Positions 2,259-28,932 are shown, counted from the stretch's first letter. The stretch: DNA of 64,000 bases from an uncultured Planctomycetota bacterium (GCA_963823665.1 CAWGMQ010000010.1:160001-224000); one strand, 5' to 3'. Translations and numbers: made by a program. Notes: generated by a model from the sequence alone, not told the origin.

Positions 2259-2375
2259 ACTATTTATTTCGCCGCCGGACCGCCGGACTTCGGTGCTGCC
2301 CCCATTGTCGCCTTTCGCTCCGCGAAAGGATTCACTATTTATTTCACCGCCGGACCGCCCGCCTTCGGTGCGGCA
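2259..2375. repeat. REP-B hairpin (GTCG-CCTTTCGC-TCC-GCGAAAGG) flanked by a ~40 bp direct duplication of the pilM 3' end
   Basis: 2259-2296 vs 2334-2371 match at 35/38; insert 2301-2333 holds the hairpin 2311-2329. Confidence 0.85.
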
Positions 2376-4839
2376 GCCCCCCCCGCCGGAGCCGTCACCC
2401 CGGGCAAGCCCGCCGCAGGCACGCTCCCCGGCGTTCCCGGTGCACCCGGCGCATTCGCCCCCGTCGCCTTCTCGAGCGCCGACTCGAATGCCTTCGACTT
2501 CTTGAGCGACTCCGCTTCAATCGTCTCCTCGAGCTTGGCCGATGTCGGCTCGGTTGCATACGCCTTCTCGGCTTCGCTCAGCTTCTTCGCCTCGTCCTCG
2601 AGCTTCGTCTTCAGCTCCTCGGGAGTCTGCGGCAGCGACTCCGGCTTCACCGGTATCCACACGAATTGCAGCAGGAAGTCGGTCCGCGTCAGCAACCGCA
2701 TGTCCTTCTTCGTGACCGCGCCCGCAGTGCCGCCCCCACCGCCGCCCATCATCCCGCCGCCCATCATCCCGCCGCCCATCATCCCGCGCCCCATTGACGC
2801 GTTCATATCTCGCATCAAGCCCGCGTTCCCCTGGTTGACCTGGCTGCCCATGCCGCCTCCCATCATGCCGCTCCCCATCATGGCGCCGCCGCCGGCGTTG
2901 CGCCTCCCACCCGTGCCCCCTCCGGCTTCCGGACCGCCCCCTTCTGCGGCCGGTGGCGCTCGCCCGGTCGAGCAGCGGCACGGTGTTGCTGGCCAGGTTG
3001 TTGGTCTGTGTCCCCTTGTCGCTCGTCCACTCCCGATCGGGAATCAGCGAGGCGACCGCAATATGGTCCACGCCGAAAAGCCGCAGCGCCGGCACGTTCA
3101 GCTTCGTGAGCACCTTGTCCGTGATGAATTGATACGGCCCGAACTCGACCCGCCGCGGGTCTGTTGGCTCGAGCGCCCGCTGGGCCCGCGACGGATACGG
3201 ATTATAGTGGTGGCACACGAGCTGGATCACCCACCCCTCTCCCGTCGGCGCCGTCTTCGCATCCAACGGATGCATCAGCTTCAAGAACGTGGTGTCGATC
3301 TTGTCGAACCACTCGGCCTTGACGTCGTTACGCCACACCGGCTTGATCGCGTCGATGTGCACGCTGAGCTTCTCGATCGCGGACTGGTCTGCCGGTGCGC
3401 TCGGATCAAGCCCGTAATCGCGCACCGGGTCCGGGAAATACCCGCTGATCGTCTTCAGGAACTGCGGCCACATGGCCCGATCCTTCGGGTCCACGATCAG
3501 CGCCGTTCCTTCGCTGTACTTGGCCTCGAAATCCTTCTTCGCCGCCTCAAAGGCCTGCTTCTGGGCCGCGCCGTTCTTGCTCACGTTCTTCGCCTGGCTC
3601 GACCGCGTCCTTGAACTGCGGCGTGGTAACGCCCGCGAGCACCCGGAAATCACCCAGCGTGAACAGCAGTGTGAGCCCCAGCAGAATGAGCGCCGATGCC
3701 GCCAGCGCCCACGGCTTCTTGGCCCGGATCAGCCGCACTCGCTCGATCTCCGGCGGCAGCAGGTTCGTACTCAGTGCCCCGCGCGATAGGCCCTGGACTC
3801 CCAGCCCGTACGCCACCGCGAACGAGGCAAGGTTGTCCTGGAATTGCGGAGCCGACTTCACTTCGTCACCCAGCAGCTTGTCAAAGCCCTCGAGCTTGCC
3901 GACCTCGTTGCTCAGGTTCTGCTGCAGGAACTTCTGCAAGCCCGGCAGTTTGAAGCCGTTACCCATGCCGACGATCTTCTTGATCTTGGCCGTGCGGTTG
4001 ATGCTCGAATAGAAGCCGATCGACCGGTTGATCTCGCTGGCGAAGTCGTTGAACACCCCACGCATCGCCGTGAAGATCGCCCGCGGATCCGGTGCCTTGG
4101 TCGCGTTCCGCTTCAGGTGTTCGGCCTTCGCGAAGGTGAGCTTCAGCTCTTTGGTAAGTGCCCGCGTGAAGTGATTGCCGCCGATCGGCACGTTTCGCTG
4201 CCAGATCCGGGCGCCGTCCGTGATGATCAGGTCCGTGTTGTCGGCCCCGATGTCCAGCAGAACGATCGAGTCCTTCGACCCGCTCCCCTTCAACTGGTCG
4301 AACGTGACGTAGTTATAAAGCGCGATCGGGCTCATCTGAACCATGTCAACCTCGATCCCCGCCACCGCAAACGGCAGGATCGCCCGGTTGATCTGGTCAC
4401 GCTTCATCGCGAAGAGCCCCACCTCCGCCATCGTGAAATCTTCCTCGTTGACCTCGTCCTCCGTGCCGATCTGCTGGTACGCCCAGACCACCTCATCGAG
4501 CGCAAACGGAATCTGCTGCTTGGCCTCGAACTTGACAATGTCCGGGATCCGCTTCTTCTCGACCGGCGGCAGCTTGATGAACTTCACCAGCCCCGACTGC
4601 CCCGGCACCGCGATCGCCACCTTGCATCCCTTGAGATCATTCCGCTCGGTGAAGGTGGCGAGCGCCTCGCGCACCAGTTCGTCCGGGTCGGCGTCCGGCT
4701 GGCTGAGGATCTTCGGGTATTCGATGAAGTCGAACGCCTCGGCCACCACCTGCTCGGCGGTCTCGCCCGGAACGAGCTTCAGCGCCTTGAGAGCGGCCTG
4801 GCCGATGTCGATGGCCCATACGGCCTGTATCTTAGCCAT
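2339..4839 (-). CDS. pilM: Type IV pilus assembly protein PilM with PilN-like C-terminal fusion; two apparent +1 frameshifts (~3600, ~2960)
   Basis: Actin-like ATPase motifs WAIDIGQAALKAL, LLDIGADNTDL, IGGNHFT, GNGFKLPGL, then NLLP plus TM. ORFs 3547..4839, 2517..3653 and 2339..2881 join into one frame if two single bases are removed (2501-2=2499 nt). Confidence 0.85.
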
Positions 4840-4953
4840 GCGGACGAGCTCCTTTGCAGCATGCGCGACGAAAAGCCAGTGACGCGTCCGATCGCGCTCT
4901 GCGGAACAAGGTTCCCTGATTCAAATCACATTGCTGATTCAGATCACGTTGCT

Positions 4954-5063
4954 GATATTGCTGTTGTGAAACGTCGAACTACCCGATCGACCCAGAGTCG
5001 CCTTTCGCTCCGCGAAAGTGCATCCCGATATTGTTGTTGTGGAACGTGGAACTACCCGATCGA
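4954..5063. repeat. REP-B element (36 bp) flanked by a 37 bp direct duplication
   Basis: gatattgctgttgtgaaacgtcgaactacccgatcga (4954-4990) vs 5027-5063 match at 34/37; insert cccagagtcgcctttcgctccgcgaaagtgcatccc (4991-5026). Confidence 0.85.
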
Positions 5064-5951
5064 GAAAATCGGCGAGATTGTAACAACCTCACGCCGTCCT
5101 CGGCGAGCCCCTACGAGAGACCGCTGGCTTGCCCCGGCTGGTCGAACCCAGACGAAGCCCTCAGCCCGGCGAAGCTGCCCCTCGCCCGAGATCCTTAACC
5201 CTTTTGACGACCCGCTTTCCCAAAAAGTTCCGCGAGGGAATGCGGAATTCCCCCCGGCCGAGTGGCCGGGCGGCTGAATGGGTCAATCCCTGCTGCCGAA
5301 CCAGTTGGTGCGATCGTTCTTGCCGGTGAAGTTTAACACACGTTTCGGCATTCCTCCCCCCACCGTGGGGGAGGTGCCGCCACAGGCGGTGGTGGTGGGG
5401 GGTGCGCAGGCGAATGACCGCGGAGCCCAGCGGCGTTCTTGTCACAGCCACCCTCAGTGGAGGGATCGTCCACAGCGACGGTAGCCCTGGGCTGTTGAAA
5501 ATATGCAGTGTAGCGAGCCGAGATTTCCCGGCGGGAGTATTGCGCCAACTTTCCCCCCCTCGCAAAACAACGGGGGGGTGAAGGGTGTCACCCGCCAGTG
5601 ATCCGATCGCAGCACCTCGCACCAGCGAATGCCCCGCATTTCCCTTTTCCCCGCTTGCAAAGGGGGGGGCCGTCCCGGCGGTCGCGGACCGAGGGTCGCT
5701 CGACCGCATCACTCCCACTCCGTCTCCTACTCCTACCCCTACTCCTCCTCCCCTTTTCCGCCCTCTTGCATTGCCAGAGCCAGCGTGCGCCGAACACAAT
5801 GGCGTATAAAAAAGATCCAAACCTCAAGAATCGCCCGATACTCGCCATCCCCTTCGTTTATAAAGACTTACGCGTGTCGAGGCCATTCGAGCAGATGCCA
5901 CGATTTCGCCCATTTTTCGCTCAAACTCCTTGTCAAAACAGACGTTAAGTG

Positions 5952-6002
5952 CGTGTCGATGTCGTGTCGATGTCGTGTCGAGGCGTGTCGAGAACGTGTC
6001 GA
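5952..6002. repeat. Five tandem CGTGTCGA motifs at 10-11 bp spacing
   Basis: Copies start at 5952, 5963, 5974, 5984, 5995; an isolated copy at 5873. Confidence 0.75.
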
Positions 6003-7279
6003 TGTGTGACGAGAACGATTGCTTGGACAAACCCGCGACCTTACGTTTTCAGCCCCCGGGAGGGGGCAAGAGCACGTAGCCAGGCCCTGGAACTCAAACA
6101 TAGTGAACAACCCGGTGCCATCGATGTGGCAATTTTGCGGTGGCAGCGCCACGAGGGTTTGGCAATCGCCGGAACATACTCACGCAACGCCCGATCCCTA
6201 TATTCGGATTGGACATGCGGAGCAACCGTCTCCACCCTGGATGACTGTTGTGGCGTGGCGCAAAGCGGCGCAAAGCGGCGCGAATTCGAGGGTGTTCCAG
6301 CATCCGTACACCGGTGTAAATTGGCGGATTCCAGCAACCGCCAATGGTCGTCATCCAAAGGTTGTCGAAGCTCGTTCAATGCAGTTGGAATCACGCTCTC
6401 GTCTCCGGATGAATGGATTTGGATAAAGGACCGCGCCGTCATGCTCCCGGCTAGGTCAGGCTTTCTCACGCCGCCCGCGAGCGCACGCGCGGCACCTATC
6501 TAGATGATCTACAAAACCCCCGACCCGTTTGCGCGAAAGATGTGGTATTCGTCCATTTCGAGAGAGATTCCTCCGCCCTCCGCCCTGATTCCCGGCCTTG
6601 GCCCTGATAATCGGGCGAGTTCGTTTTGTAGATTTGACGATGCTCCTTTGCCTGTAAACATTAAGGGAACGCCGGTGATCGCCGTCAGCGTGCCTGGGCT
6701 GGGAGTGGCCGCGTGCCGGTTCCCTGCATTGCCGCAGTCAATCTCCTTTGCGCCGTTCCGCCTTTGTGTGAACTCATCTTCGTCTTCCATCTCAAGAGTC
6801 CGGCACGGCCGAGTCATTCCTGTAACCGGCCTCCGCTTCTTTGCGCCTTTGCGTGAGCTCATCTCCATGTGCAATTTCAAACGAAGAGTACCGGTTGTAA
6901 CGCGTTGATGCCCCCTTTTGTGTGCGCGCTGTGCCACGCGGACGTGCTCCGCAGCCCGACTGGCCTGCTGCCCGGACACCTGGCCAGTCTTTGCCAGCCG
7001 GCAACTCCGTGCCTCACCCGGCAACGCCGCCATGTTCCGTTTCCGATCCTCGATCTTCTTTCCGCATCACGAAAAACTCCCGTTACTGCGCCTGAAAGGA
7101 TGCGGCGATTTGGAGCGAACTCGAGCCACTGGACTGGCGACCGAATCCGATGGAGAATGGTGAACATGCGCCACGTTGGACGCACCCTGACCCCGGCCCC
7201 CCGCTACGATGCAGTGGCCGAACGTTGAGTCCGGCCAGGCTCACAAAGAAAGTAAGATCCGTGTACCAGGATCTCCACG

Positions 7280-8452
7280 ATGAACGATGACAAGCAATCG
7301 GTCCGGCGTTGGAACTTGCTGAAGATGCTTTCGTCTCGAAGGCACGGCGTCAGTATTGGCGACATGGCCGATGAGATGGCTTCAGGCGAGAAGACGATTC
7401 GTCGCGATCTCGACTTCTTTCGACGACGCGGCGTCCGGCTCACCGAGGAGGTAGCAGATCGCGGCCGAAAGCACTTTAAGCTCGCAAAACTGCCAGCCGA
7501 AGCGGACCACTCGCTCGACTACCTGGAGGCCTACGCGCTTTATGTGAGTCGCGAGTTTCTCGAGCCTCTCGCCGGGACAAATCTGTGGGACTCCGCGCAA
7601 TCCGCCTTCAGGAAAATCAAGTGCTCGTTGAACAACACGGCGCTCAGCTACCTGAGTCAATTCGGAGACATGATCCATCGCACGGTCGCCCGGGCTGACT
7701 ATTCCAAGAAAGCCGAGGTGATCGACGCACTGATGGTCGCGATCGAAGACACACAGGTGGTCAGCGTCGCCTATCAATCATTGAACGCCACCGAGCCAAG
7801 TACGAGAGAGCTGCACCCGCATGGTTTCATGTACAATTTCCGAGCGCTCTACCTGGTCGCCTACGCGCCCGAGCACCGCGCGATCCGCACGTACAAGGTC
7901 AACCGGATCGAGGATGTGCAGCCGACGAAGAAGACATTCGAGAGGCTCGCGAATTTCGACATACGCAAATATCTCGAGGGCTCGTTCGGAGTCCACTCCA
8001 GCTCGGGCGAATGGTTCGATGTCCGCGTGCGATTTGACGCGGTGGTCGCCCGATACGTCTCCGAGACATGCTGGCACCCGACCCAGCGTCTCGTTCCGCA
8101 GCGCGATGGCTCTCTCATCGCCGAGTTTCGCCTGAACACCGCGGAGGAGCTGCGAAGCTGGACCCTCGGCTTTGGTTCGCACGCAACGGTCTTAGAACCG
8201 CTCGCACTCAGAAATTCGTTGCGTGATGAGCTCCGCCGCGCACTGGAATCCTATCCGGACGCCCCGCCCGCAGGCCAGGGCGATTCGACGTGCGACGAAT
8301 CCAAGCCCTCGCCGCTGCGCGACGATCGCGAGACCGCCGAGATGAAGGCCGAAGCCAAACCCAACCGCCAGCAAACCCGCACCAAAATCGCAACGGCGCC
8401 GAAGCGAGAAACCGATCGAGAAAAACCTCGGCTTGCTCCAGAACATGGCTGA
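7280..8452 (+). CDS. HTH-WYL-WCX transcriptional regulator heading the cas operon
   Basis: N-terminal wHTH (SEKTIRRD-like GEKTIRRDL), WYL motif variant ALYLVAY, IRTYKVNRI, WCX-like WTLGFGSHATVLEP; stop 3 nt before cas3. Confidence 0.9.
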   Translation: MNDDKQSVRRWNLLKMLSSRRHGVSIGDMADEMASGEKTIRRDLDFFRRRGVRLTEEVADRGRKHFKLAKLPAEADHSLDYLEAYALYVSREFLEPLAGTNLWDSAQSAFRKIKCSLNNTALSYLSQFGDMIHRTVARADYSKKAEVIDALMVAIEDTQVVSVAYQSLNATEPSTRELHPHGFMYNFRALYLVAYAPEHRAIRTYKVNRIEDVQPTKKTFERLANFDIRKYLEGSFGVHSSSGEWFDVRVRFDAVVARYVSETCWHPTQRLVPQRDGSLIAEFRLNTAEELRSWTLGFGSHATVLEPLALRNSLRDELRRALESYPDAPPAGQGDSTCDESKPSPLRDDRETAEMKAEAKPNRQQTRTKIATAPKRETDREKPRLAPEHG

Positions 8453-8455
8453 TCG

Positions 8456-11269
8456 ATGACTCCTGGGCATCGTATACACATGATCGAGTTTAGCGAAATC
8501 TTCAAAAAACTGACGGACAATCCGCCGCTCTCGTGGCAGTCACGGCTCTACGCCAACCACTTTGTCGGCGAAAACAGCCTGCCCGCTGTCATCGACCTGC
8601 CGACCGGACTTGGCAAGACGATGGTCATGGCGATCTGGTTGATCGCCCGAGCGACGAACCGCCGACTACCCACGCGGTTGATTTACGTCGTCGATCGGCG
8701 AACGGTCGTGGATCAGGCGACCGACCTGGCGGAGAGGCTGGTCAAAAACTGGAAGGAAAAGCGACTCTTCGCGGAAGACCCGCCCGCCATCTCCACCCTG
8801 CGCGGCCAACTCGCCGACAACCGCGAATGGACGCGCGACCCAACTAAACCTGCGATCATCATTGGCACGGTCGATCTCATCGGATCGGCCCTCCTCTTCT
8901 CGGGCTACCGGTCCAGCTACAAGCGTCGACCGCGCGAAGCGGGCTTGCTGGGACAAGATTCGCTACTTGTCTTGGACGAGGCACACCTGTCCAGACCGTT
9001 TGAAAAGCTCATCTGCGCCATAAACACCGACGGGCCATTTCAGAAAAACGGCGATGAGAAAACAAAAAGCAAGCCCATGTGCGTCATCCGCATGTCGGCC
9101 ACGAGCGGTGGCTTGATAGACTCGAAACCGCCGTTCATGTTGCAATTCGATTCCGATGGAAATCTGACCCGCGAGGATGCCAAAGACGAAACCACGATCA
9201 AGCGATTCGGCGCGTCAAAGACCTTGTCGATTGTCGAAGACGCGAAGTTGGTCGAAACCATCGCCAAGTACGCCGACAAACTGGCGACCGACAAGCCCGG
9301 GTCGCGAATCGTTATCTTCGTCCAAACACCCAAGCTGGTTGGTGATGTTCGTAAGGCGCTCGAAAAGAAGAACAAGGATTACGGCAGACGCACCGCGCAG
9401 TTGACCGGCACGATGCGTGGACTGGAACGCGATGAGCTCGTCGACACTGAAAGGCTGCCCGGCGAAGACGAGCACGAATGTCGGGCGATGCGACGGTTCC
9501 TCAAGCCTGACAATGACTCCTCACTCGGTGAGTGTTTCCTCATCTCCACCAGCGCCAGCGAGGTCGGCTTTGATCTCAACGCCGACCACATGGTCTGCGA
9601 CGCCACCACGATCGATTCGTTCATCCAGAGGCTCGGGCGAGTGAACCGTCGCGGCGACGGTGCGGCGACGGTCGTGCTCGTCCGTGAGCCAGCGAAGCTG
9701 AAAGACGGCAAGCCGGTCGAGCTCAATGGCCTCGGCCTCGCGATCGCCAACACGCTCAAGCTCGTCGAATGCGTGACGGATGTCAGCCCCAAGAACATCG
9801 CCGCGCTGAAATCAGACAAGTGGAGAGACACCTACGCGGCCGCCTGCTCGCCGGAGCCAAAGATGGTCGAGCTCACTGACATCCTCCTCGATGCCTGGAG
9901 TATGACCAGCATCGTCGAGCCCATGCCCGGCCGGCCAGAGGTGGGACCGTGGCTGCGCGGGATCGACGACGAGCTGCCGCAAACCACCATCGCCTGGAGG
10001 ACGGAAATTGATCTTGATGGCTTTGCCGACCTCGACATCGACGACATCGAAGAGTGGTTTGACACGCATCGCGTCTTCACGCACGAGGCGCTCAGTGTGA
10101 AGACCAGCGATGCCGCCGCATGGTTCAAGGAGCGCTGGGATGCGCTTCTCGAGGCGCAACAACGCGAACTCGATAAGCGGGCTGTTGTTATTGATCGCGC
10201 CGGGATTCAGGTCGTCCCGCTGAGGGAAGTCATCACTCGCCTCTTACGCAAAGCTGCCGACGCCGATGCCTTCCTGCGCGGCGCGGAGGTTATCGTCCCC
10301 GCGTCCTTTGGCGGCATCCGGCGCGGAATTGGCCTGCTCGACCACACTCAGCCGAAGCTCGATAAGGCCGAAGCAGAAAAGACGCTCGAAGAACAATCGG
10401 CGATACTCAAACAGCGGGAGGCTGACGTCGATGTCGCCGACGTCGCGCCCGGGCGCCCGCGGCTTCGGGAGATCATCACGACGACCGAAGACGGCGACAA
10501 AGAATCGAAAACGATTGGCAACGGCACAAGGCCACAGAACGCAGTGCCATTCCGCCTCCGCGTTGAATCCGACGACGACAAGGCTGTCCGCGTCGTCAGC
10601 TACATCTCGCGCCGGGAGAAGCCTGAATTAGGATTGCAAAGGCAGACTCTGCGAGAGCACGTCGGAGCGGTCCGCAAGGCCGTCGATCACATCCTCGCCC
10701 GACTCGCGCTCGCGAACCCTATGGAGCGAACCATTACGCTTGCCTCCCAACTCGCGGCCGACTACCACGACCACGGGAAGAACCGCGAACTCTGGCAACG
10801 GACAGTGAACGGCGAAGCAACCCCAGTGGGCAAAAACTGGCTCGATCACACTCTCGGCAAGTCCGGCGGCGAGATGAAGCGCGACCCTCGCGGCTATCGC
10901 CACGAATTTGGCTCACTTCGGGAGCTCACGGAAGCCTTCAATGCCGGAAAACTCCTCGAAAATGCCGACAAACCGATCACCGAGGAAGTTTTTGATCTCG
11001 CGATGCACCTCATCGCCACCCATCACGGCCGCGGTCGGCCGCATTTTCCCAGAGGGGCGTTCGATCCAGATTGCGAATCGCAATCGGATGCCATCCACAC
11101 CGAATCCATGCGCCGTTTCGCACGCCTTCAGCGCAAGTACGGCTGGTGGTACCTCGCGTGGCTGGAAAACCTGCTCCGCTGCGCCGACGCTCTAGCGAGC
11201 GAACAACCCAGTGACGGCGACAACAAGGACAACCGCGAGGCAAAGAAATCCGACGGAATCGAAACATGA
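8456..11269 (+). CDS. cas3: Type I-G (I-U) Cas3 helicase/nuclease with C-terminal HD domain
   Basis: LPTGLGKT, YVVDRRTVVDQ, LDEAH, MSAT, QRLGRVNRRG; C-terminal TLREH, YHDHGK, RHEFGS, THHGRGRP, RCAD. Alternative start at 8480. Confidence 0.95.
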   Translation: MTPGHRIHMIEFSEIFKKLTDNPPLSWQSRLYANHFVGENSLPAVIDLPTGLGKTMVMAIWLIARATNRRLPTRLIYVVDRRTVVDQATDLAERLVKNWKEKRLFAEDPPAISTLRGQLADNREWTRDPTKPAIIIGTVDLIGSALLFSGYRSSYKRRPREAGLLGQDSLLVLDEAHLSRPFEKLICAINTDGPFQKNGDEKTKSKPMCVIRMSATSGGLIDSKPPFMLQFDSDGNLTREDAKDETTIKRFGASKTLSIVEDAKLVETIAKYADKLATDKPGSRIVIFVQTPKLVGDVRKALEKKNKDYGRRTAQLTGTMRGLERDELVDTERLPGEDEHECRAMRRFLKPDNDSSLGECFLISTSASEVGFDLNADHMVCDATTIDSFIQRLGRVNRRGDGAATVVLVREPAKLKDGKPVELNGLGLAIANTLKLVECVTDVSPKNIAALKSDKWRDTYAAACSPEPKMVELTDILLDAWSMTSIVEPMPGRPEVGPWLRGIDDELPQTTIAWRTEIDLDGFADLDIDDIEEWFDTHRVFTHEALSVKTSDAAAWFKERWDALLEAQQRELDKRAVVIDRAGIQVVPLREVITRLLRKAADADAFLRGAEVIVPASFGGIRRGIGLLDHTQPKLDKAEAEKTLEEQSAILKQREADVDVADVAPGRPRLREIITTTEDGDKESKTIGNGTRPQNAVPFRLRVESDDDKAVRVVSYISRREKPELGLQRQTLREHVGAVRKAVDHILARLALANPMERTITLASQLAADYHDHGKNRELWQRTVNGEATPVGKNWLDHTLGKSGGEMKRDPRGYRHEFGSLRELTEAFNAGKLLENADKPITEEVFDLAMHLIATHHGRGRPHFPRGAFDPDCESQSDAIHTESMRRFARLQRKYGWWYLAWLENLLRCADALASEQPSDGDNKDNREAKKSDGIET

Positions 11270-11292
11270 ACCGACAACTGTGCCCACACCCG

Positions 11293-11712
11293 CTACGGCA
11301 GAATCGTGCAGCGAGCTCGTTGATACCGGCCAAATCCTTGGTCGAAGGAAACGACCTCGAAGCCGCTGAGCTCGGCGAACGCGGCCAAATAGGCATCGTT
11401 CCAAACCTTCGGCGAGAACTGCTCGCCTTGCGTATGGGAGCGCCAGATCGCCTCGACGCCGTCCGGCTCGTCGGCGAATGCGACATTGGGGTCGGCCAAG
11501 AATGCATCGTAGGCAAGCCAGGCATCAGACATGGTGACCGCGGCCGGCCCCATGGCGGCCGGGTTCGACGCCAGGCGCAGAAAGCCCGCTTGCGTAAACC
11601 GGCAGAAGCAACGCGGCGCGGTCGCCGCGCCAAACCAAGCGACCGCCGGCGCGTGATGCACGTGCCGCTTGAACGCCAGCGCGAGCCAGACATTGACGTC
11701 AAGCAGATGCAT
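11293..11712 (-). CDS. vapC: VapC-family PIN-domain toxin, antisense within the cas operon
   Basis: LLDVNVWLAL...HVHH, WNDAYLAAFA, VVSFDQGF PIN acidic motifs; 139 aa; start overlaps the antitoxin end. Confidence 0.9.
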   Translation of the reverse strand: MHLLDVNVWLALAFKRHVHHAPAVAWFGAATAPRCFCRFTQAGFLRLASNPAAMGPAAVTMSDAWLAYDAFLADPNVAFADEPDGVEAIWRSHTQGEQFSPKVWNDAYLAAFAELSGFEVVSFDQGFGRYQRARCTILP

Positions 11713-11926
11713 CGTCGCGATCCAGTATCTCAGCGATGCGCTCGTTGGTCAAATCAATATCAGGCCGCCCGTCATAGTCGAAAATCGGCAGCGCGACCGG
11801 CCGCCCAGCCCTCGCGGAACGTGGCGGTTTCGCTGGAAACGAAACAGAAACACGCGTGCCTTCGGGCAATGGCACCGGCAGGTCCAGCACAATTACGCCA
11901 TTCTCAACCCGGCCAAGTAAGTTCAT
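11699..11926 (-). CDS. Putative antitoxin (AF2212/DUF104-like), 75 aa
   Basis: MNLLGRVENGVIVLDLPVPLPEGTRVSV... N-terminal signature; overlaps vapC start by 14 nt. Confidence 0.8.
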   Translation of the reverse strand: MNLLGRVENGVIVLDLPVPLPEGTRVSVSFPAKPPRSARAGRPVALPIFDYDGRPDIDLTNERIAEILDRDDASA

Positions 11927-11990
11927 GCCCTCATTGTCACTTCTTGCCCGGCTGGAATCAAGCGCAGCCGCGGACGCAGGGAGAACAACC

Positions 11991-12872
11991 GTGACCACTC
12001 CCGAACCCAACATCAATATCCCCGTTGACCTGACCAATCCCGGCCAGTTCTTCGCCTCCTGCGGTCTACTCGAGCTAGCCGACCGCCTCTGGCCGGGGGC
12101 TGAAGGGGTTCCCGGAGTGGTTGGATGGTTCGAGCGACGGCACTTCTGCATGCTTACCGAGGACCGATCCAAAACGCTACAGGAACTTCTGGCACAGGCG
12201 CGGGAGGTGACGTTCGATGTCGGCGACGACTCAGAGAGCGAGGAGGACGACGAGGAAAATGGCAAGAATCAGCAAGTCGAGCCGATCCGCTTGCATTGGA
12301 GTAACGAAAAACACGCGATCCATCTCGATTGGTGGTCGGAGAAGGCCCTCAAACCATGGGCTGGCTCGATGAAGGAACGTGTGATACTTCGGGCAATGCT
12401 CACCGCCATTGATCCAACGAAAGATGACCCATTTAACCATCTCAAATTCGTTCCCTACCAATCGCCGAAACTGACGAAGGCGGGAAAGAAGTCGAAGCCG
12501 GAGAAAAAAGAGCCGTTCTATTTCGATCCTCGCCGCGGAAACAAATCGCATCCCCTTGACTGCGGTTTCTCACCTAACGCGCACGGCATGGAGGCTGAGT
12601 GTTGTCCAGCCCTGGAATCGCTCTGTTTCATCGGCCTACAACGCGCGCGGCCGGCGCCGACCGCAGTTGCGAATCAATCCCGCTACACCGTCTGGCACCG
12701 GGTGTCGGATGAACAGCCCGGGATACCGGCGAACCTCGTCGGCGCGGTTGCTTGTGCCGCCATTCGCTTGCCGCGTTCGAACGATTACATCTTTGACAAT
12801 TACTTCCGCAGCGACCAACGCAAACACAAGACCTTTTCCCAAGCGATCCTCGAAAGGAGCCTCCATGTCTGA
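11991..12872 (+). CDS. cas8u2: Type I-G large subunit Cas8u2/Cas8g (GSU0052 family)
   Basis: GTG start after AGGGAG; IPVDLTNPGQFFASCGLLELA, LDWW, KPWAG, FYFDPR, ESLCFIGLQRARP; lies between cas3 and cas7. Confidence 0.8.
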   Translation: MTTPEPNINIPVDLTNPGQFFASCGLLELADRLWPGAEGVPGVVGWFERRHFCMLTEDRSKTLQELLAQAREVTFDVGDDSESEEDDEENGKNQQVEPIRLHWSNEKHAIHLDWWSEKALKPWAGSMKERVILRAMLTAIDPTKDDPFNHLKFVPYQSPKLTKAGKKSKPEKKEPFYFDPRRGNKSHPLDCGFSPNAHGMEAECCPALESLCFIGLQRARPAPTAVANQSRYTVWHRVSDEQPGIPANLVGAVACAAIRLPRSNDYIFDNYFRSDQRKHKTFSQAILERSLHV

Positions 12873-14511
12873 GCAATCCGAAGCCCCGCGTACCGTCACC
12901 GATTTCGCGGCAGAATTCCTCGCCGACAATGCGGTGGCCATGATCGTCAAGCAGCACCTTTCGCCGGACGACATCGAGAATCCAGTGATCTTTCCACCGA
13001 CGTACTTGAGATCCAGAAACAAGGGACAGGCTGAAAAGGAGCCTGATGGAGAAGACAAGAAGGATAGGAAGAAGGATCAACAGCCGCAGTCTGTCTACAA
13101 CCTCAGCGACCTCGGCGACAGCCGAAATGTCGTCGATATCGACAGTCCACAGTCGGACGGGAACCGAAGCGAGCCACTCTTCAGATCCGAAGCGCTCAAA
13201 CACCTCGTGCCCCAAATTGTCATCGACGTCAATGGCACCCCGGTCAACATTCTTGATGCGGGCCACCGCGCGGGAGATGCCGTGGTTCGACTGTCGAGCC
13301 TCGCCGCTGAATTTCACACAGCATTCGAGCGTGCTGGTCTTGGCGACCACTCAGTGCTTGCCTCGCTCGCACCGACTTCGCTGCTCTACGGGGTTTGGGA
13401 TTCCCGATCAACTCAGACGAAGCTCCAACGCATCATCAAGGCGAGCGTACGCGCTGAGAATGTTCGAGAACTGACGCGGTCTGCAACATTCATCCCGGCA
13501 GCCGACTATGTTGCGGTCGGCGCTGTGAAGGAAGAATTGAACGCCGGCGACGGAGACAGCAATCCCTTGTCGTCGGAGGGAATGCTGCATGCACTCGCCA
13601 GTCAAACGCTCGGTGGCGTGCGCCTCACGAACCCAAAACTGCTCGTTCGATCAATAAAGATTAATCTCGTTGCGTTGCGACAGCTCAATGCGATCGTCGA
13701 ACCAGGCAAGCCGCCTGCTCCCCCCGCACTAAACAACGCAACCGAAGAGCAAAAGTTGACGTACACGAAGCAGATCGAGGAGTTTGAGGCTGCCAAGAAG
13801 AAGGCGGCTCTCGACTCACAACTTCGTACCGACGCGCTGCGCAAGTACATCCTCGGTCTGGCGCTGACTGTCGCAACGTCTGATCCAGACCTGAACCTTC
13901 GCGAAGGCTGTAATCTCCGCATTGTTGATGATCAGTTCCTTCTCATTCGGCATCGGAAAAATGATGAATCCATTGAATTCGACACGAACTTGGTGAAGAC
14001 GTTCGCCGACGACGGGGCTAAGGCGTTCTTTAAAGCAATGAAGATCGAGTTCGACAGGAAAGATCACCTTGACGCGAGGTTCGAGAAGGACGTCGCGGAG
14101 GAATTTCTCGGCTTAACGGACTCGAAAGGAAAGCTCAGCGGTGGAGAACGAGACAAGGCTCGCAAGATCGGGCCGATCACACGCGCAACAATGGATGAAT
14201 ACTCGCGACAACGGAGGAAGCGGGAGAACGCGGGTGATCCGATGGTCAAACTCCGCACGTTGATCGAGAAGGTGAAGCCGGTTTCCGGAGGAAGGAAGCT
14301 AAGTGCAGACGCGGAGAGACTCCGCGTCCACCTAACGGACAATGCGCCTGACACAGAAGATCTTAAAGACATACATGAACGGATACTCGGTATTCTCGAT
14401 TGCAACGATCCGCCCGAAGCAAAGGTCACGGCATTGAAGTCGGTCGTGTCGCCAGCGGAAAATCAGCCCGCTCATGCGCCAAACCCGGCAACTTCTGGGG
14501 TTAGCCAATGA
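12865..14511 (+). CDS. csb1: Type I-G backbone Cas7u (Csb1, GSU0053 family), long at 548 aa
   Basis: ATG after AAGGAG; VIFPPTY, IDSPQSDGNRSE, GHRAGDA, APTSLLYGVWDSR, LREGCNL. Confidence 0.9.
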   Translation: MSEQSEAPRTVTDFAAEFLADNAVAMIVKQHLSPDDIENPVIFPPTYLRSRNKGQAEKEPDGEDKKDRKKDQQPQSVYNLSDLGDSRNVVDIDSPQSDGNRSEPLFRSEALKHLVPQIVIDVNGTPVNILDAGHRAGDAVVRLSSLAAEFHTAFERAGLGDHSVLASLAPTSLLYGVWDSRSTQTKLQRIIKASVRAENVRELTRSATFIPAADYVAVGAVKEELNAGDGDSNPLSSEGMLHALASQTLGGVRLTNPKLLVRSIKINLVALRQLNAIVEPGKPPAPPALNNATEEQKLTYTKQIEEFEAAKKKAALDSQLRTDALRKYILGLALTVATSDPDLNLREGCNLRIVDDQFLLIRHRKNDESIEFDTNLVKTFADDGAKAFFKAMKIEFDRKDHLDARFEKDVAEEFLGLTDSKGKLSGGERDKARKIGPITRATMDEYSRQRRKRENAGDPMVKLRTLIEKVKPVSGGRKLSADAERLRVHLTDNAPDTEDLKDIHERILGILDCNDPPEAKVTALKSVVSPAENQPAHAPNPATSGVSQ

Positions 14512-16084
14512 CGTATCTACTCCTCACTGTCCGTTTCCTCGACGACCGTTACCATGGTCTTCTCGATCGCGGCGGGCCGCCGGAGTGGCCGCCTTCGCCA
14601 TTTCGATTGTTTCAGGCGTTGGTTGCCGGCGTGGCACGGCGGGGGGAACTTGTCTTTGGCGAAGATGTCCCGTCGAACGCGAGATTCACGCCCATCGGGC
14701 GAGCGCTCGTTTGGTTGCAGCGGCACACGCTGGAGCATCCCCCTATCATCATCGCGCCGAAATCAAAGCCCGGCCGGGCAATCACACGTTTCGTGCCCAA
14801 CAACGACGGCGACACGATTTTCGATCGGCAAGAACGACTGACCGCGAAGCCGACGTTTCCAACATTCTTCATCCTCGAAAGAGAACCAGACGCCGGAAGT
14901 GCATTTCGTCTGGGACATCGAAGGCAAGAGCGGTTGTCCAGTGGCGGGCATCGAGCGGGCCGCTCGCTCGCTGACGACACTCGGCTGGGGCATTGACATG
15001 GCTTTCGCCGACGCGCGCCCGGCGACCGAAGAACAGCTTCAACAACTTAAAGGCGTTCGCTGGTATCCCAAGAAGGCTGCCAGCCGGGGCGAAGGAATGC
15101 TGCGAACGCCGACCTACGACGAGAAGACGGGAGAATGCACCCTTTCCAATTTACGGCACTGCCACGAGAACCTTCATGAACCGAATCGAACATGGGCAGC
15201 CGCTCAGGACGGTGGATAAACCGAAGACCTTCGACCGAGTTCTGTACGCCAGCGTCGAACGGCCGCTCGGCAAGCCGCGATGCGTATTCAAACTCATCGA
15301 CCAAGACGACGACGCCTACCCCTACGCACACGCGAAACTGATCCACGTGGCGGGCATGCTGCGCCACGCGGCGATCAAACTAATGACTCGCAACCTACCG
15401 GCGCTCGTACTTGATCCGGATTGGGTAAATCGCGTCGTCCGAGGGAAGCGGGACGAGTCGACCGCAGCCGAGCACAAGCAGTTCTCTTATGTTCCCCTTC
15501 CCACGATCGGCCATCCGCACGCCGATGCGATGATCCGCAACGTCATGATCGTAGCGCCGCTCGGGATCGAGCGCGAGTTGAACTACCTGGCCGACCAACT
15601 CAACGGCCAGGCCCTCGAGCCCGAAGGCGAAGATGAACCGCGCAAGAGGGACTCGGCTCCGGCTGTGTCACGCCGCATCGAGCTCCAAAAGTTCACGCCG
15701 CCGCCCGGAAAGTTCATCGACAAGTGCTACCTCGGCACGTCCCGCGTCTGGCAGACCGTCACCCCAGCCATCCTGGACGGACACAACGATAAGAAAGCCG
15801 AAAAGACGATCAAACTCATCCAGGCGGCGCTTCAACGGTCCGGTATCGAAACCCCGTGCACCTTCACTTGGCAATCGACGCCATTCCTCAAGAATTGCCT
15901 CAGCGCCCACAAGTACGATCGAGACGGCCGGCACACCGGCTACCACAGACCGGCGCATCTCCGCGACCAGACCGCCGTCCACGTGCGTCTGACATTCGAC
16001 CACCCCGTTCCCGGCCCTCTGACCATCGGCGCCGGTCGACATTGCGGCTTTGGACTTTTCTCCGCGATTCAAGACAACCAGTAG
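14508..16084 (+). CDS. csb2: Csb2 (Cas5/Cas6 fusion, GSU0054 family); two apparent +1 frameshifts (~14877, ~15169)
   Basis: EWPPSPFRLFQALVA, LGWGIDMA, PLPTIGHPHADA, WQTVTP, GPLTIGAGRHCGFGLF spread over three consecutive ORFs; 1577-2=1575 nt restores one frame. Confidence 0.9.
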
Positions 16085-16178
16085 CGTCCATCGCGCTCAA
16101 TCGCCCGCGAAATCACCCCCATGCCCACCACCCGCCTCGGCACCCGCGACCTCCTCGCAACTGACAACTAACAACTGA

Positions 16179-16751
<573 letters not shown>

Positions 16752-16763
16752 GAGGACCCAACA

Positions 16764-19079
16764 ATGTCGCAACTTCCAATCATCCCCGAACCAGGCACGA
16801 ATGCCGCCCCCGTGCCCGACCCTCTCCCCGATTACCTCCCAGCCCGCATGCTCAACGAATTCGTCTACTGCCCGCGCCTGTTCTACTACGAGTGGGTCGA
16901 AGGCCTTTTCGCCCACAACCGCGAGACCGTCGAGGGCGCGCTCCGCCACGCCAAGCTCGACAGCCAGCAAGACGCGCTCACACCGGCCGATGAGCTGGCC
17001 CCCGAAGATCGCGCCCACTCCCGCTCGGTAATGCTCTCCAGCGACACACACAAGCTCATCGCAAAAATCGACCTCGTCGAGGCCGAAGGCTCAACAGTCA
17101 CCGCCGTTGACTACAAGCGCGGCGCCCCCCGCCAGCGCACCAACTCCGGCGACCTCGAAGCCTGGCCCGCCGACCGCGTCCAGGTGGCCGTCCAGGCGCT
17201 CGTCCTCCGCGACAACGGCTACTCATGTCAGGAGGCCGTGGTCTACTACGTCAAAACCAAGCAGCGCGTCCGCGTCGCCATCGACGACGCCCTGATCGCA
17301 GAGACGCTCGCCGCCGTCGCCGACGCGCGTGCCGCCGCCCTCGGCGAGATCCCAACACCGCTCGTCGACAGCCCCAAGTGCCCCCGCTGCTCATTGGTCG
17401 GCATCTGCCTCCCCGACGAAACCCGCTTCGTCCAGGCCGTCGACGAAACCACGGCTGCCTCCGGACCCGAAGCTTCCCCCATTGTCGCCCTTCGCTCCGC
17501 GAAGGGACCTCTGCCGTCCACACACCAACCCGAAGCGTCAGCGAGGACTCTCATTGAATCCGGCTCCGCCAGTGTCCGATCTCACATTTCCACCACACCA
17601 GAAACCGCCGAATCCGACCCACCCGCCCCCCGCCGCTTGGTCGCCGCACGCGACGACCTGCGCCCACTCTATCTCAACGCGCAGGGTCTCACGGTCGGCA
17701 AGTCCGGCAACCTCTTGAAGGTCAAGGAAGGCGATTCGGTTGTCCAGGAAGTTCGCATCGGCGAGACCTGCCAGGTCAACGTCTTCGGCAGCATCCAGCT
17801 CACCACGCAGGCGATCCAGACCCTCTGTCAAAACGAAGTGCCCATCGCCTACTTTTCCCAGGGAGGGTGGTTCTACGGCATGACCCAAGGGCTCGGTGTG
17901 CGCAACATCTCGCTCCGACGCGAGCAGTTCCGGCTCGCCGACGATCCGGAGTTCTGCCTCGGCATCGCCCGCAGACTTGTTGCCGGCAAGATCCGCAACC
18001 AGCGCACGATGCTCCAGCGCAACCATGTTCAGCCGCCCGCCGTGGCGATCGCTCAACTCAAGTGCCTGTGCGACGACGCGGAAAACGCCGAGTCGAGCGC
18101 CACACTCCTCGGCATCGAAGGCAACGCCGCTCGCATCTATTTCGAGAACTTCTCAGGCATGATCAAGGCCGGCAACGCGCGCACGCCCAATGAGGACCTG
18201 GCCGAGCAGCTCTTCGCACTGGTCTTCGGAGAGTCGGCGACCGACAATCCCATCCCAGAAGACGATCAGGGCAGCAGCACGAAGCCGGTTGCAAGCGGAA
18301 TTCGCGACGATGTAGCAGGCACACTCCGTGTGCCGCCCGCGCCGAGCAGCAGCACGAAGCCCGATGCAAGCGGAATTCGCGGCGATGTAGCAGGCACACT
18401 CCGTGTGCCGCCCGCGCCGAGCAGCAGCACGAAGCCCGATGCGACCGGAACCGGACACCAGAGTGGCCTTTCGCTCCGCGAAACTGCGTCCCGTACCACT
18501 TCGAAGCCCAAAGCAGCCGCAATGGGAGGGCAAGGCCCCGACCAAGCCACCGCTCGAGACGCTACCGCCGTGACGAAGACCGGTGCAGGCGCCAGGGAGC
18601 CCGAGCTCAACTTCGACTTCACCCACCGCAACCGCAGGCCGCCGCGCGATCCGGTCAACGCTCTACTTTCGCTGGCCTACAGTGTGCTGGCGAAGGACCT
18701 GACAATCGTGTGTCACGCGGTCGGCTTCGACCCTTTCATCGGAATGTTTCACCAGCCGCGCTTCGGCCGCGCTCCGTTGCCGCTCGATCTGATGGAGCCT
18801 TTTCGCCCGCTGATCGCGGATTCGGCGGTCCTCTCGGCGATCAATACGCGCATGGTGACGCCCAAGGACTTCATCCGGGCCGGCCAGTCCGTGGCGCTGC
18901 GGCCGGACGGCCGCAAGGCTTTCTTCCGCGCGTATGAGCAGCGGATGGATACGCTTGTGACGCACCCACTCTTCGGCTACCGTTTGAACTACCGGCGCAT
19001 GCTGGAGATCCAGACACGTCTTCTGGCTCGAACGGTGACAGGCGAGATCAACACGTATCCGGTCTTCGTCACTCGCTGA
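16764..19079 (+). CDS. cas1: Cas4-Cas1 fusion (GSU0057-type) carrying in-frame REP-derived insertions
   Basis: Cas4: FVYCPRLFYYEWVEG, KIDLVE, VDYKRG, CPRCSLVGIC. Cas1: GKIRNQR, LLGIEGNAARIYF, RNRRPPRDPVNALLSLAY, LDLMEPFRPLIAD. Confidence 0.95.
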   Translation: MSQLPIIPEPGTNAAPVPDPLPDYLPARMLNEFVYCPRLFYYEWVEGLFAHNRETVEGALRHAKLDSQQDALTPADELAPEDRAHSRSVMLSSDTHKLIAKIDLVEAEGSTVTAVDYKRGAPRQRTNSGDLEAWPADRVQVAVQALVLRDNGYSCQEAVVYYVKTKQRVRVAIDDALIAETLAAVADARAAALGEIPTPLVDSPKCPRCSLVGICLPDETRFVQAVDETTAASGPEASPIVALRSAKGPLPSTHQPEASARTLIESGSASVRSHISTTPETAESDPPAPRRLVAARDDLRPLYLNAQGLTVGKSGNLLKVKEGDSVVQEVRIGETCQVNVFGSIQLTTQAIQTLCQNEVPIAYFSQGGWFYGMTQGLGVRNISLRREQFRLADDPEFCLGIARRLVAGKIRNQRTMLQRNHVQPPAVAIAQLKCLCDDAENAESSATLLGIEGNAARIYFENFSGMIKAGNARTPNEDLAEQLFALVFGESATDNPIPEDDQGSSTKPVASGIRDDVAGTLRVPPAPSSSTKPDASGIRGDVAGTLRVPPAPSSSTKPDATGTGHQSGLSLRETASRTTSKPKAAAMGGQGPDQATARDATAVTKTGAGAREPELNFDFTHRNRRPPRDPVNALLSLAYSVLAKDLTIVCHAVGFDPFIGMFHQPRFGRAPLPLDLMEPFRPLIADSAVLSAINTRMVTPKDFIRAGQSVALRPDGRKAFFRAYEQRMDTLVTHPLFGYRLNYRRMLEIQTRLLARTVTGEINTYPVFVTR
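18271..18592. repeat. In-frame mini-array inside cas1: five copies of a ~40 bp local unit interspaced by REP-A, REP-A, REP-B and an unidentified segment
   Basis: Unit core cgaag at 18280, 18355, 18430, 18502, 18574 (periods 75, 75, 72, 72); REP-A at 18312 and 18387, REP-B at 18458-18493. Confidence 0.8.
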
Positions 19080-19085
19080 TCTGAT

Positions 19086-19190
19086 CTGATCCGCTCCGGC
19101 TCAAAACGGGAACCCGCCAGCCATCGTCGCCCTTCGCTCCGAAGGGATTTCTTCCGCTGATCCGCTCCAGCTCAAAACGGAGCCCGCCAG
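19086..19190. repeat. REP-B variant (36 bp) flanked by a 34-35 bp direct duplication just after the cas1 stop
   Basis: ctgatccgctccggctcaaaacgggaacccgccag (19086-19120) vs 19157-19190; insert ccatcgtcgcccttcgctccgaagggatttcttccg. Confidence 0.85.
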
Positions 19191-19425: not shown

Positions 19426-22400
19426 CTTTCCGCGCTCAACCGAGCGCGGCTCCATTGAAGCGAGACGCCGAAGAACGAGAACATCGAGGGCGGACGACTT
19501 TCCGCGCTCAACCGAGCGCGGCTCCATTGAAGCGGTATCGACCCCCGCGCGGCCCAGCTTAATTCCTAACTTTCCGCGCTCAACCGAGCGCGGCTCCATT
19601 GAAGCCATCTAAAAGATTTCGCGGACCGCTTGCATGCAGCGTCTTTCCGCGCTCAACCGAGCGCGGCTCCATTGAAGCCGGCGAGATCGCAGGCGCTCGA
19701 GCTCTCGCTCGAGCCTTTCCGCGCTCAACCGAGCGCGGCTCCATTGAAGCCAGTCCATCGTTCGCGCCGCCGTGAAGCGCGAACTCCTTTCCGCGCTCAA
19801 CCGAGCGCGGCTCCATTGAAGCGACCCACGCGATTTCGATCCCGTCTTTCTGGTGCGCCTTTCCGCGCTCAACCGAGCGCGGCTCCATTGAAGCTCAAAG
19901 GCTTCGTTCCACTCCAGCTCCCCGGCCTGTTCTTTCCGCGCTCAACCGAGCGCGGCTCCATTGAAGCCCGAGTCTCTCCGAGCTGTGGGGGTGGTCGGAG
20001 TTGCAGCTTTCCGCGCTCAACCGAGCGCGGCTCCATTGAAGCCTGGCCGCTTCAGCCAGCAAATCATCGCAAGGGCCCCTTTCCGCGCTCAACCGAGCGC
20101 GGCTCCATTGAAGCCGATCGCCCGGACACGCTGCACTATTGCGACCCGCCCTTTCCGCGCTCAACCGAGCGCGGCTCCATTGAAGCGGGTCTGCGAGCTG
20201 CTCGCGGGTGAGACCCTTGCCGCCGGCTTTCCGCGCTCGAACCGAGCGCGGCTCCATTGAAGCGGGGCTGAGTTTCATCGCACTCCCCGGGGTCGTGAAG
20301 TCTTTCCGCGCTCAACCGAGCGCGGCTCCATTGAAGCTGGCTCGGGTCGCAACGGCAAGAACACGGTCCTTGACTTTCCGCGCTCAACCGAGCGCGGCTC
20401 CATTGAAGCGCACCGCGCCCAACGCGCCGGCCAGCCCCCGGGTGCCCTTTCCGCGCTCAACCGAGCGCGGCTCCATTGAAGCCGATGTAACCGCCCTGGT
20501 TGCCGATCGAGGTGTCGGACTTTCCGCGCTCAACCGAGCGCGGCTCCATTGAAGCATAAAGGGTTTCCGCGAAGGCGTCGGCGCTTTCACGGAGCTTTCC
20601 GCGCTCAACCGAGCGCGGCTCCATTGAAGCGTCTGCCGGTTCATTCCGCGCGAGCCCGCGAGACATCCTTTCCGCGCTCAACCGAGCGCGGCTCCATTGA
20701 AGCCTGGCCCACGGCCTGATTGCGATGCCATTCGATTTCTTTCCGCGCTCAACCGAGCGCGGCTCCATTGAAGCGTGGCATGTGGCGAGCCTGGCAGCGG
20801 AGAGATCGAGACTTTCCGCGCTCAACCGAGCGCGGCTCCATTGAAGCTTGATTACCTTATCGGCGTGGTCGGCTGGCCACATCCTTTCCGCGCTCAACCG
20901 AGCGCGGCTCCATTGAAGCGGCTCCGCTCTGGCCGGCCTGGGCCGGGGTTCGCCTGCTTTCCGCGCTCAACCGAGCGCGGCTCCATTGAAGCAGGGCGGC
21001 TCACGCTGGCCCAGCTCAATTTCCTCCTCCTTTCCGCGCTCAACCGAGCGCGGCTCCATTGAAGCAAGATCAAGCCCCGCATTGACTCCGCGGAAAAGAT
21101 GCCTTTCCGCGCTCAACCGAGCGCGGCTCCATTGAAGCATGCAGCGCTAGAGGCACTGGCCACACACCCGCACATCCTTTCCGCGCTCAACCGAGCGCGG
21201 CTCCATTGAAGCGACATGTTGTTGCTTGGCCTCCGCCTGGGCGAGACGAACTTTCCGCGCTCAACCGAGCGCGGCTCCATTGAAGCCTCGCGACTCAGCA
21301 GCTTCCGAACAACTTCACCAAGGCTTTCCGCGCTCAACCGAGCGCGGCTCCATTGAAGCCTTGTGCCACTTCTCGGACGCTGTTGCTTCCAAGTCCTTTC
21401 CGCGCTCAACCGAGCGCGGCTCCATTGAAGCTTTGACCTCCGCCTGGCCTCGGCCGCGACGCTCACCCCTTTCCGCGCTCAACCGAGCGCGGCTCCATTG
21501 AAGCGAACAGCTCGTCGCGCGTCTTGGGCAGCCCTAAAAGCCTTTCCGCGCTCAACCGAGCGCGGCTCCATTGAAGCCTCGAGTCTCATAAACACTTGGT
21601 TCGCTATCGATGGGCTTTCCGCGCTCAACCGAGCGCGGCTCCATTGAAGCTCCGAGTAGCCGTAGCAAGCCGTAGCGTGCCCGCCAGCTTTCCGCGCTCA
21701 ACCGAGCGCGGCTCCATTGAAGCATGAGGCTGTAACGATGCTTGCCGTTCCGCGTGTTGACTTTCCGCGCTCAACCGAGCGCGGCTCCATTGAAGCTGGA
21801 AAGAGACTCCGCGGAGATTGGCCCCGCTGAAATCCTTTCCGCGCTCAACCGAGCGCGGCTCCATTGAAGCTGATCAGGTGATATTCACGCCGCACACGAT
21901 CGGTGCTTCTTTCCGCGCTCAACCGAGCGCGGCTCCATTGAAGCCCCCTTTAACGGGAGCGGGGCGTAGATCCCCTGCCATTCTTTCCGCGCTCAACCGA
22001 GCGCGGCTCCATTGAAGCGCCACTGATCAGCACGGGACCGTCTACCAGGCCATGCCTTTCCGCGCTCAACCGAGCGCGGCTCCATTGAAGCCTTGATTCG
22101 CTCAGCGGATTCGTGGGCAACGAGTCCCTTTCCGCGCTCAACCGAGCGCGGCTCCATTGAAGCACCATCGGATGGGCGGGGAAGCCATACCGCAGATCGA
22201 CTTTCCGCGCTCAACCGAGCGCGGCTCCATTGAAGCCGGCCCACTCTCGCGCGTATCTCTGGAGATCCGCTTCTTTCCGCGCTCAACCGAGCGCGGCTCC
22301 ATTGAAGCTTGGCGTATGTGCTGTCCGTGGTTCTGGCCGTGGTCGACTTTCCGCGCTCAACCGAGCGCGGCTCCATTGAAGCTCCTGATCAGCGCACAGG

Positions 22401-28849: not shown

Positions 28850-28872
28850 AAGAAAGGACATGCATTGTATTC

Positions 28873-28901: not shown

Positions 28902-28932
28902 CCGTCGATCGATCACCTACGGAGCCCCACCC

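Follow-up and report, generated by a model that had tools for sequence, protein, structure and literature searches.

Single REP hairpins between long direct duplications in a planctomycete genome: possible RAYT-driven insertion with target duplication

How did short hairpins come to lie between two copies of a local sequence, at a spacing that matches the period of a neighboring CRISPR array? The question is raised by a 64,000-bp stretch of DNA from an uncultured Planctomycetota bacterium (GCA_963823665.1 CAWGMQ010000010.1:160001-224000, or G000:C10:160001-224000; hereafter the window), which carries a type I-G CRISPR-Cas locus (cas3g, cas8g, cas7g, csb2, cas2, and cas4g-cas1g). At four sites in the window, a repetitive extragenic palindrome (REP) of class REP-B stands between two copies of a local sequence, here called X. 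We rate at about even the chance that REP singlets of ~35 nt were inserted with a ~37-bp duplication, likely by a cognate REP-associated tyrosine transposase (RAYT) together with host replication or repair, and without Cas1. Comparisons involve the genome that contains the window (G000; 16.5 Mb, 92% complete), its sister species (G001), and other genomes including G033, G034, G111, G199, and G204; the class labels REP-A, -B, -G, -H, and -K were assigned by us or by an earlier sequence-only reading of the window. The four sites comprise the following features:

2259..2299, plus strand: left X of site 1, 41 bp; repeats the 3' end of a minus-strand pilM-operon gene as an extra copy; X is single in G001
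2300..2333, plus strand: REP-B insert of site 1, 34 nt; GTCG tag, hairpin core at 2307-2328, and short tails
2334..2374, plus strand: right X of site 1; contains the stop codon of open reading frame (ORF) 2342-3043 (minus strand); site period 75
4954..5063, plus strand: site 2, upstream of pilM; X at 4954-4990 (37 bp), 36-nt REP-B insert (core 4997-5018), X at 5027-5063; period 73
19086..19190, plus strand: site 3, in the gap between the cas1 stop codon and the leader; X at 19086-19120, REP-B2 minus 2 nt at 19126-19145, X at 19157-19190 (35/34 bp); period 71
18271..18527, plus strand: mosaic in cas1 that includes site 4; in-frame X-REP-A-X-REP-A-X (period 75), then REP-B at 18463-18484 and a decayed X

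The duplication-REP-duplication layout described by the sequence-only reading is non-random at all four sites: within the 69-75 band, sites 1 to 4 reach best ungapped diagonal scores of 33, 31, 22, and 12, with p < 0.001 (sites 1-3) and p = 0.0013 (site 4) against 3000 swapped-flank pairs. The layout stands with small boundary corrections, the insert of site 1 being 34 nt and not 33 bp. Site 4 (18421-18527) is a weak, decayed copy with a period of 72, and the period of site 3 was probably 73 originally, given the 2 nt missing from its REP.

The case for insertion comes from orthologous loci in G001, for which four G000 loci (L023, L033, L043, and L055) were picked because they show duplications. 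A single X without a REP is found in G001 at the orthologs of site 1 (2259-2374), L033 (74 bp shorter), L055 (exactly 72 bp shorter; X of 37 bp, insert of 35 nt), and L043. The sequence-only reading had named empty, single-copy orthologs as the check on its model, in which a very long stretch of the target is duplicated on insertion, and these four clear examples bear that model out: X-REP-X opposite a single X implies that a hairpin unit of ~35 nt was inserted and that ~37 bp of the target was duplicated. Other loci are less clean. X is also single in G001 at L023, with synteny lost past X; the ortholog of site 2 lacks the REP but is 85 bp shorter and diverged; at site 3, a single diverged, X-like copy is present in G001, with a differently flanked REP upstream of that copy; synteny is broken at the REPs in the L415 region; and no G000 ortholog was found for the event L279 of G001. 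About ten REPs are common to both species, mostly with no duplication detected, as would fit the decay of older copies. Donor tracing by common flanks found no copy that shared a whole insert, and among the public sequencing runs (the best containing 21% of the words) no site was bridged by contigs in the matches listed.

Several of these duplications fall on gene ends. X contains the stop codon of pheA (L023), of purH (L043), of cas2, and of an ABC ATPase gene that overlaps its permease gene (L033), and at site 1 it is the end of the pilM-operon gene. At an overlapped junction, a first step free of duplication would break a gene; a long duplication restores gene ends and the junctions of overlapped stop and start codons, which would let insertions of this kind survive selection. 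A duplication that covers a gene's final 12 codons, or an overlap of stop and start, would explain how REPs come to lie harmlessly just behind genes.

REP-A and REP-B have the hallmarks of REPs, namely a tag with a palindrome, a high dispersed copy number, and, for REP-B, a RAYT gene with copies of that REP on its flanks. The REP-B consensus is CCC-A-NN-GTCG-hairpin-TGCGTC, about 35 nt; the tag is GTAG in REP-A and GTCG/GTTG in REP-B (a variant of the GT(A/G)G-like REP tag), and both classes fold into 8-10-bp stems at -8.2 kcal/mol. Dispersed copies in G000 number 90 exact cores for REP-B, 167 for REP-A, and 174 for REP-H, and the named GTDB records with REP-B matches are all planctomycete. 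An inverted partner, the defining feature of the REPIN (a unit of two inverted REPs), accompanies only 13/344 REP-A/B sites in G000 and G001, vs. 242/330 in other planctomycetes and 91/95 metagenome sites. The same REP sequences in other planctomycetes are mostly inverted doublets without the duplication footprint, and in G000 and G001 the singlet appears to be the inserted unit.

Genome-wide statistics were taken over fetched loci (131 REP-B and 111 REP-A in G000; 102 REP-B and 8 REP-A in G001; for REP-H, a sample of 62 of about 500). Sites <150 nt from a locus end were excluded before counting, and REP-A composites in which X is another REP class (L312, L409, L413, L414, and L418) were masked or treated as mosaics, except that L414 was left in the count of 26 given next. 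Among 212 solitary REP-A/B sites in G000 and G001, a flank-to-flank repeat scoring at least 10 has a period of 69-75 at 26 (null 0.5%), a period of 55-61 at 7, and falls in each of nine other 7-bp bands at 0-3; with a threshold of at least 16, such repeats flank 20/89 exact-core REP-B sites (null 1.1%). The histogram of lengths that the sequence-only reading had called for is tightly clustered, with a mode at 72 (n = 12); the other best periods are 60-62 (n = 7), 69-71 (n = 4), 73 (n = 5), 74 (n = 2), 75 (n = 2), 79 (n = 2), 83 (n = 1), and 58, 65, and 87 (n = 1 each), two pairs across this list being orthologs. The association of REP-B with duplications therefore holds genome-wide, but it is detectable at only about 1 in 8 solitary REPs and extends to REP-A.

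In well-kept REP-B events, X measures 36-41 bp and the insert 32-37 nt, and the core lies roughly in the center of the insert, 2-9 nt from its 5' edge and 5-13 nt from its 3' edge; these gaps agree with the consensus unit boundaries, which we count in favor of an inserted unit of ~35 nt. Conserved junction bases were not found in 15 events, the boundaries of which are blurred by decay. In the 60-62 sub-peak, two of the 7 sites are orthologs and some X copies are hairpin-like. This weak second peak and the event at 83 would fit helical-turn steps; a ladder of periods at 10.5-bp intervals, however, was not seen in tandem spacings, and at solitary sites it is a hint only, confined to that sub-peak and the one site at 83.

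Outside the genus, the footprint at 69-75 was found at 0/104 solitary REP-A/B sites (Fisher p = 0.002), a number inflated by G204, in which fused palindromes were read on both strands. Doublet clusters elsewhere scored at least 12 in 4/197 cases, with a true-looking flank duplication only at L633, a REP-B doublet with a 24-bp direct duplication on the metagenome contig Ga0105044_10032008. The family has other forms in these relatives: in G204 (L542-L571), REP-B occurs as fused 27-nt palindromes within a longer conserved flank and also in 33-bp tandem arrays, a different life-style, and in G033 (C1-C2; L116-L119 and L139) a REP-B doublet recurs with a spacing fixed at 147 bp, as a larger REPIN-like mobile unit.

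A candidate enzyme is encoded in G000. A Pfam search identified 11 Y1 genes, none with REP-A or REP-B in its locus, and missed a twelfth, at C3:583137, which has REP-B on both sides and is split by a frameshift. Its product matches NF047646 below the cut-off (E = 7e-14), and the best direct repeat at this REP-B REPtron scored 14.5. REP-B also adjoins RAYT genes in G001 (L287), G033 (L139/L573), and G199 (L526); a cognate RAYT for REP-A was not found. The window itself contains one related gene:

28744..30018, plus strand: Y1/RAYT-like gene (PF01797; NF047646 below cut-off); candidate only, with no REP-A/B in the fetched locus

This gene begins about 100 bp past the truncated last repeat of the CRISPR array, and another hairpin repeat lies at 29631.

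We infer the enzyme, the cuts, and the ruler of REP insertion. The RAYT would excise the hairpin unit from single-stranded DNA about 5-8 nt on either side of the core; two openings about 37 nt apart would be made in the target, through a nick in each strand or through one nick combined with strand-displacement synthesis at a replication fork, and the unit would be joined between them; fill-in would then leave X on both sides. Slippage or unequal crossing between X copies could afterward yield X-REP-X-REP-X arrays, as at the cas2 end and in the cas1 loop. For Escherichia coli TnpA-REP, HUH-type cleavage and strand transfer and amplification primed by a 3'-OH are described (PMC3333891, PMC8266576).

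A number of observations weigh against this proposal. The cognate RAYT gene is frameshifted in the G000 assembly and absent at the orthologous G001 site, and G033 and G204, which have intact orthologs of it (C5:1557223 and C6:36505; 74% and 61% identical, respectively), lack the footprint. No flanking direct repeats were found at the ten other G000 Y1 loci tested. REP-H, which has an apparently intact RAYT in G001, shows no footprint (0/26 at a score of at least 13), and a polymorphic REP-H site (L662) is without clear duplication. The footprint is present in about 12% of solitary REPs only, and the set of empty sites was chosen for having duplications. IS200/IS605-like HUH transposition involves cleavage at a defined dinucleotide or tetranucleotide, C|T in the case of E. 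coli TnpA-REP, and on inspection the decayed junctions here show no evident C|T rule. Measuring 37 bp has no obvious basis in a small HUH enzyme; Cas1-Cas2 does measure. Enzymes of the IS200/605 type leave no direct repeats (PMC3333891, PMC2817692), and direct repeats made by RAYTs are not described in the literature found (a search that most subscription papers fell outside).

The alternative that survives best, although unlikely, is stepwise amplification, in which a REP inserts without duplication, a RAYT nick primes a ~72-nt [REP+flank] tandem (the Ton-Hoang model B), and one REP is then precisely lost. Each step is compatible with TnpA-REP chemistry as set out in PMC3333891. REP-X-REP-X' tandems without a clear upstream X occur at L280 (71), L318 (74), L393 (75), and L063 (45), the last being single in G001, and REP-A tandem spacings cluster at 67-75. 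Yet the intermediate would interrupt a gene at L033, L055, and L043, three events are needed, and the value of 72 is left unexplained. REP-B tandem and solitary periods also differ (12:5 vs. 9:24 for 51-68 vs. 69-75; p = 0.006), in a test biased by the greater difficulty of detecting a short X. Head-to-tail REP-B spacings are broad (33-144). Some arrays begin and end with X (at the cas2 end, L327, and L405) and are read as amplified X-REP-X, and other arrays start at a REP and are read as local duplication. The array at the cas2 end lies in the window:

16185..16469, plus strand: cas2 (TIGR01573); the REP-A array downstream repeats its final codons as X
16455..16751, plus strand: X-REP-A-X array with 5 REP-A (16485, 16541, 16589, 16638, and 16695) and 6 X; absent in G001

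The spacings in this array are 56/48/49/57, the 48-57 bp that the sequence-only reading had cited as a counterpoint to a Cas1 ruler; the spacings were right, but they belong to a REP-A tandem class and have little bearing on the primary event.

RAYT-driven insertion must also be weighed against a role for Cas1, which the sequence-only reading had raised as RAYT-Cas1 cross-talk. The features concerned are:

16764..19079, plus strand: cas4g-cas1g fusion gene, type I-G (NF049935, E = 5e-219), with in-frame REP insertions in two loops
17484..17590, plus strand: REP-B2 and REP-G in cas4g-cas1g; REP-B2 at 17484-17505 is common to G001, with a decayed 72-period duplication in both species
19426..28793, plus strand: type I-G CRISPR array; 36-bp repeat in 128 copies, with a period of 71-77 (mode 73); an object of comparison, and a candidate only as part of the mechanism

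Cas1-Cas2, either of the I-G system (Cas4/1 fusion, 36-bp repeat) or of a I-B system (37-bp repeat), would integrate RAYT-released REP 'spacers' of ~36 nt ectopically and duplicate a repeat-length target. Put as a hybrid pathway, the RAYT would release hairpins that Cas1-Cas2 pastes with a 36-37 bp duplication, turning a doublet family into a singlet one. We consider the first version improbable, and the hybrid to the same degree.

What invites the idea is length. The period match noted by the sequence-only reading is real: event periods of 71-75 are tightly clustered and indistinguishable from the distribution in the array (chi-square p = 0.30), and, as in spacer integration by Cas1-Cas2, an insert of about 36 nt lies between target copies of about 36 bp. 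With X of about 36-41 bp the duplication is repeat-like, and with 32-37 nt the insert is spacer-like; the apparent X is at least 36 bp in 8/9 well-kept REP-B events, the exception being L335, the end of which is decayed or deleted. The insert register floats somewhat (2/13, 3/11, 5/7, and 9/5). The I-G system is present in both genomes that show the footprint, together with second arrays of period 72-76, and in six cas1-negative genomes, the kind of comparison by which the sequence-only reading had proposed to refute the link, the footprint was found at 0-1 of 20 solitary REP-A sites, the one weak and doubtful match (L716 in G111; score 12, period 76) being discounted, as its X was judged to be another dispersed repeat. 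REPs are dense around the adaptation genes, with 4 clusters within the 3.2 kb of cas2-cas1-leader vs. a background of 9 per 400 kb, although the window was selected for this. Post hoc, the 5' part of REP-B (2300-2334) matches the end/start junction of the CRISPR repeat (19426-19461) at 13/15 bases (shuffle p = 0.004).

Other observations speak against Cas1. X is not repeat-like (14.5 vs. 14.7 of 36 matches to the I-G repeat; p = 0.82), and no REP-less, non-coding X-Y-X near 72 was found in 400 kb of random G000 DNA, in which matches of period 72-78 were read by inspection as in-frame protein repeats; arbitrary prespacers should vastly outnumber REP ones, so that this absence weighs against Cas1. 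Nor do REPs occur among the spacers of nine arrays, although self-targeting could have purged them. The cas1-positive genomes G204, G033, and G034 lack the footprint despite array periods of 71-74 (with few sites in G034); Cas1 is thus not sufficient. A period of 71-75 is common in planctomycete arrays, which makes the match a cheap one. The 60-62 sub-peak is unmatched by any array in G000 or G001; a second CRISPR system with a period of ~61 was considered for it and ruled out, the second arrays having periods of 72-76. Among the copies compared, no donor-specific flank travels with the insert. Off-target 'neo-CRISPR' integration by Cas1-Cas2 is known; here, by contrast, every insert is a REP, the target does not resemble the repeat, and arbitrary inserts were looked for without success. 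Frequent occurrence of REPs in genes for replication and repair is in any case reported (PMC3733652), and the literature found does not describe a RAYT-Cas1 link. The proposed cross-talk is unsupported, and improbable rather than refuted.

Distinctly improbable is that another enzyme inserted the units, either an IS1634/IS1549-like DDE transposase or a reverse transcriptase (RT; encoded beside cas1 or by a group II intron) that inserts stable hairpins of REP RNA by target-primed synthesis. IS1634 and IS1549 generate target duplications of tens of bases, given as direct repeats of 8-514 bp in PMC2266710; in contrast to the 37-bp mode, these are variable, and the elements are of kilobase size and encode DDE transposases. 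IS1634-type repeats are not modal, and apart from the hairpin, terminal inverted repeats are absent from the REP units. As to reverse transcription, group II-type RTs are encoded in G000, and in G001 REP-B separates cas1 from a neighboring RT gene; however, a search of G000 did not find this RT (best matches 35%), and it is present in G033 without a footprint at 10 solitary sites. The G001 locus (C5:3430229-3435400; L691) has a REP-B/REP-D mosaic between the two genes, an array of period 74-75, a near-duplicate on contig C11 (L692), and an 80% ortholog in G033.

Highly improbable, finally, is the reversed polarity, in which X-REP-X is ancestral, having arisen by REP-independent slippage, and G001 lost the REP and one X: loss of the segment between direct repeats happens commonly, and the two genomes of the genus compared here provide no close outgroup, but a duplication that straddles the REP and the mode at 72 are left unexplained, comparable non-coding duplications were not found in 400 kb of random DNA, and G034, with the same I-G locus, lacks all of the cas1 inserts.

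RAYT-driven singlet insertion can be set beside known systems as follows. The families resemble REP/REPIN/bacterial interspersed mosaic element (BIME)-RAYT systems in their hairpins with GTAG/GTCG tags, which number 100-300 copies and mostly lie shortly after stop codons (PMC2817692, PMC3116915, PMC3333891, PMC8266576), and in having a RAYT flanked by REPs and head-to-tail arrays with flanking DNA (also PMC3733652). In that literature the mobile unit is the inverted doublet; singlets are decaying remnants, and singlet excisions were unseen (PMC3116915 and PMC3337134). Here, singlets appear to be inserted, with a duplication of ~37 bp and a sharp length mode. Likeness to IS200/IS605 elements (IS608, ISDra2) lies in the presumed HUH/Y1 chemistry, the recognition of a hairpin, and a strand-specific element; those elements move a transposase gene between two hairpins and leave no direct repeats (PMC3333891), in contrast to the 36-41-bp duplications with empty orthologs reported here. 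Amplification models, the lack of direct repeats in IS200/605, and the view of doublets as mobile and singlets as remnants are covered collectively by PMC3733652, PMC6006769, PMC8266576, PMC3686654, PMC3116915, PMC3333891, PMC2817692, PMC2266710, PMC2884548, and PMC3337134, and how REPs spread, a question of long standing, is in the literature read a mechanism still to be elucidated. Insertion of singlet REPs with a long, modal duplication is not described in the literature found. Some E. coli BIMEs may have direct repeats on their flanks, which would lower the novelty of the present observation.

The findings oppose two views, namely that a singlet REP is the dead remnant of a doublet and that Y1/HUH insertion leaves no direct repeat. 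The clean filled/empty pairs yield a concrete prediction for an assay, a defined 35-nt unit with a ~37-bp duplication. Were Cas1-Cas2 the ruler, this would be a natural co-option of a CRISPR integrase, with adaptation machinery spreading a selfish repeat.

The Cas4g-Cas1g protein has itself accommodated REPs: two loops carry independent in-frame insertions in both species (REP-A/B/G in G000; REP-B2/K in G001, L105), which add about 130 codons relative to the orthologous region of G034. One of these, an in-frame 75-bp insert with the hairpin REP-G (17527; within 17484-17590), is not in G001; in the loop that corresponds to 18271-18527, G001 carries two REP-K copies of independent origin, spaced by 72 bp. 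Upstream in the same locus (window 11266-16084), csb2 consists of two overlapping ORFs and the cas8g region is apparently also frameshifted, through sequencing error or decay. Elsewhere, RAYT genes lie between long REP-H tandem arrays with periods of 28-33 bp in G001 (C4:1182481-1183951; L576) and G033 (L580), and a third repeat family of period ~75 is found in G000 (C5:1391170-1393040; L492/L079), where 25 head-to-tail double-hairpin units with a period of 74-76 stand upstream of a RAYT gene.

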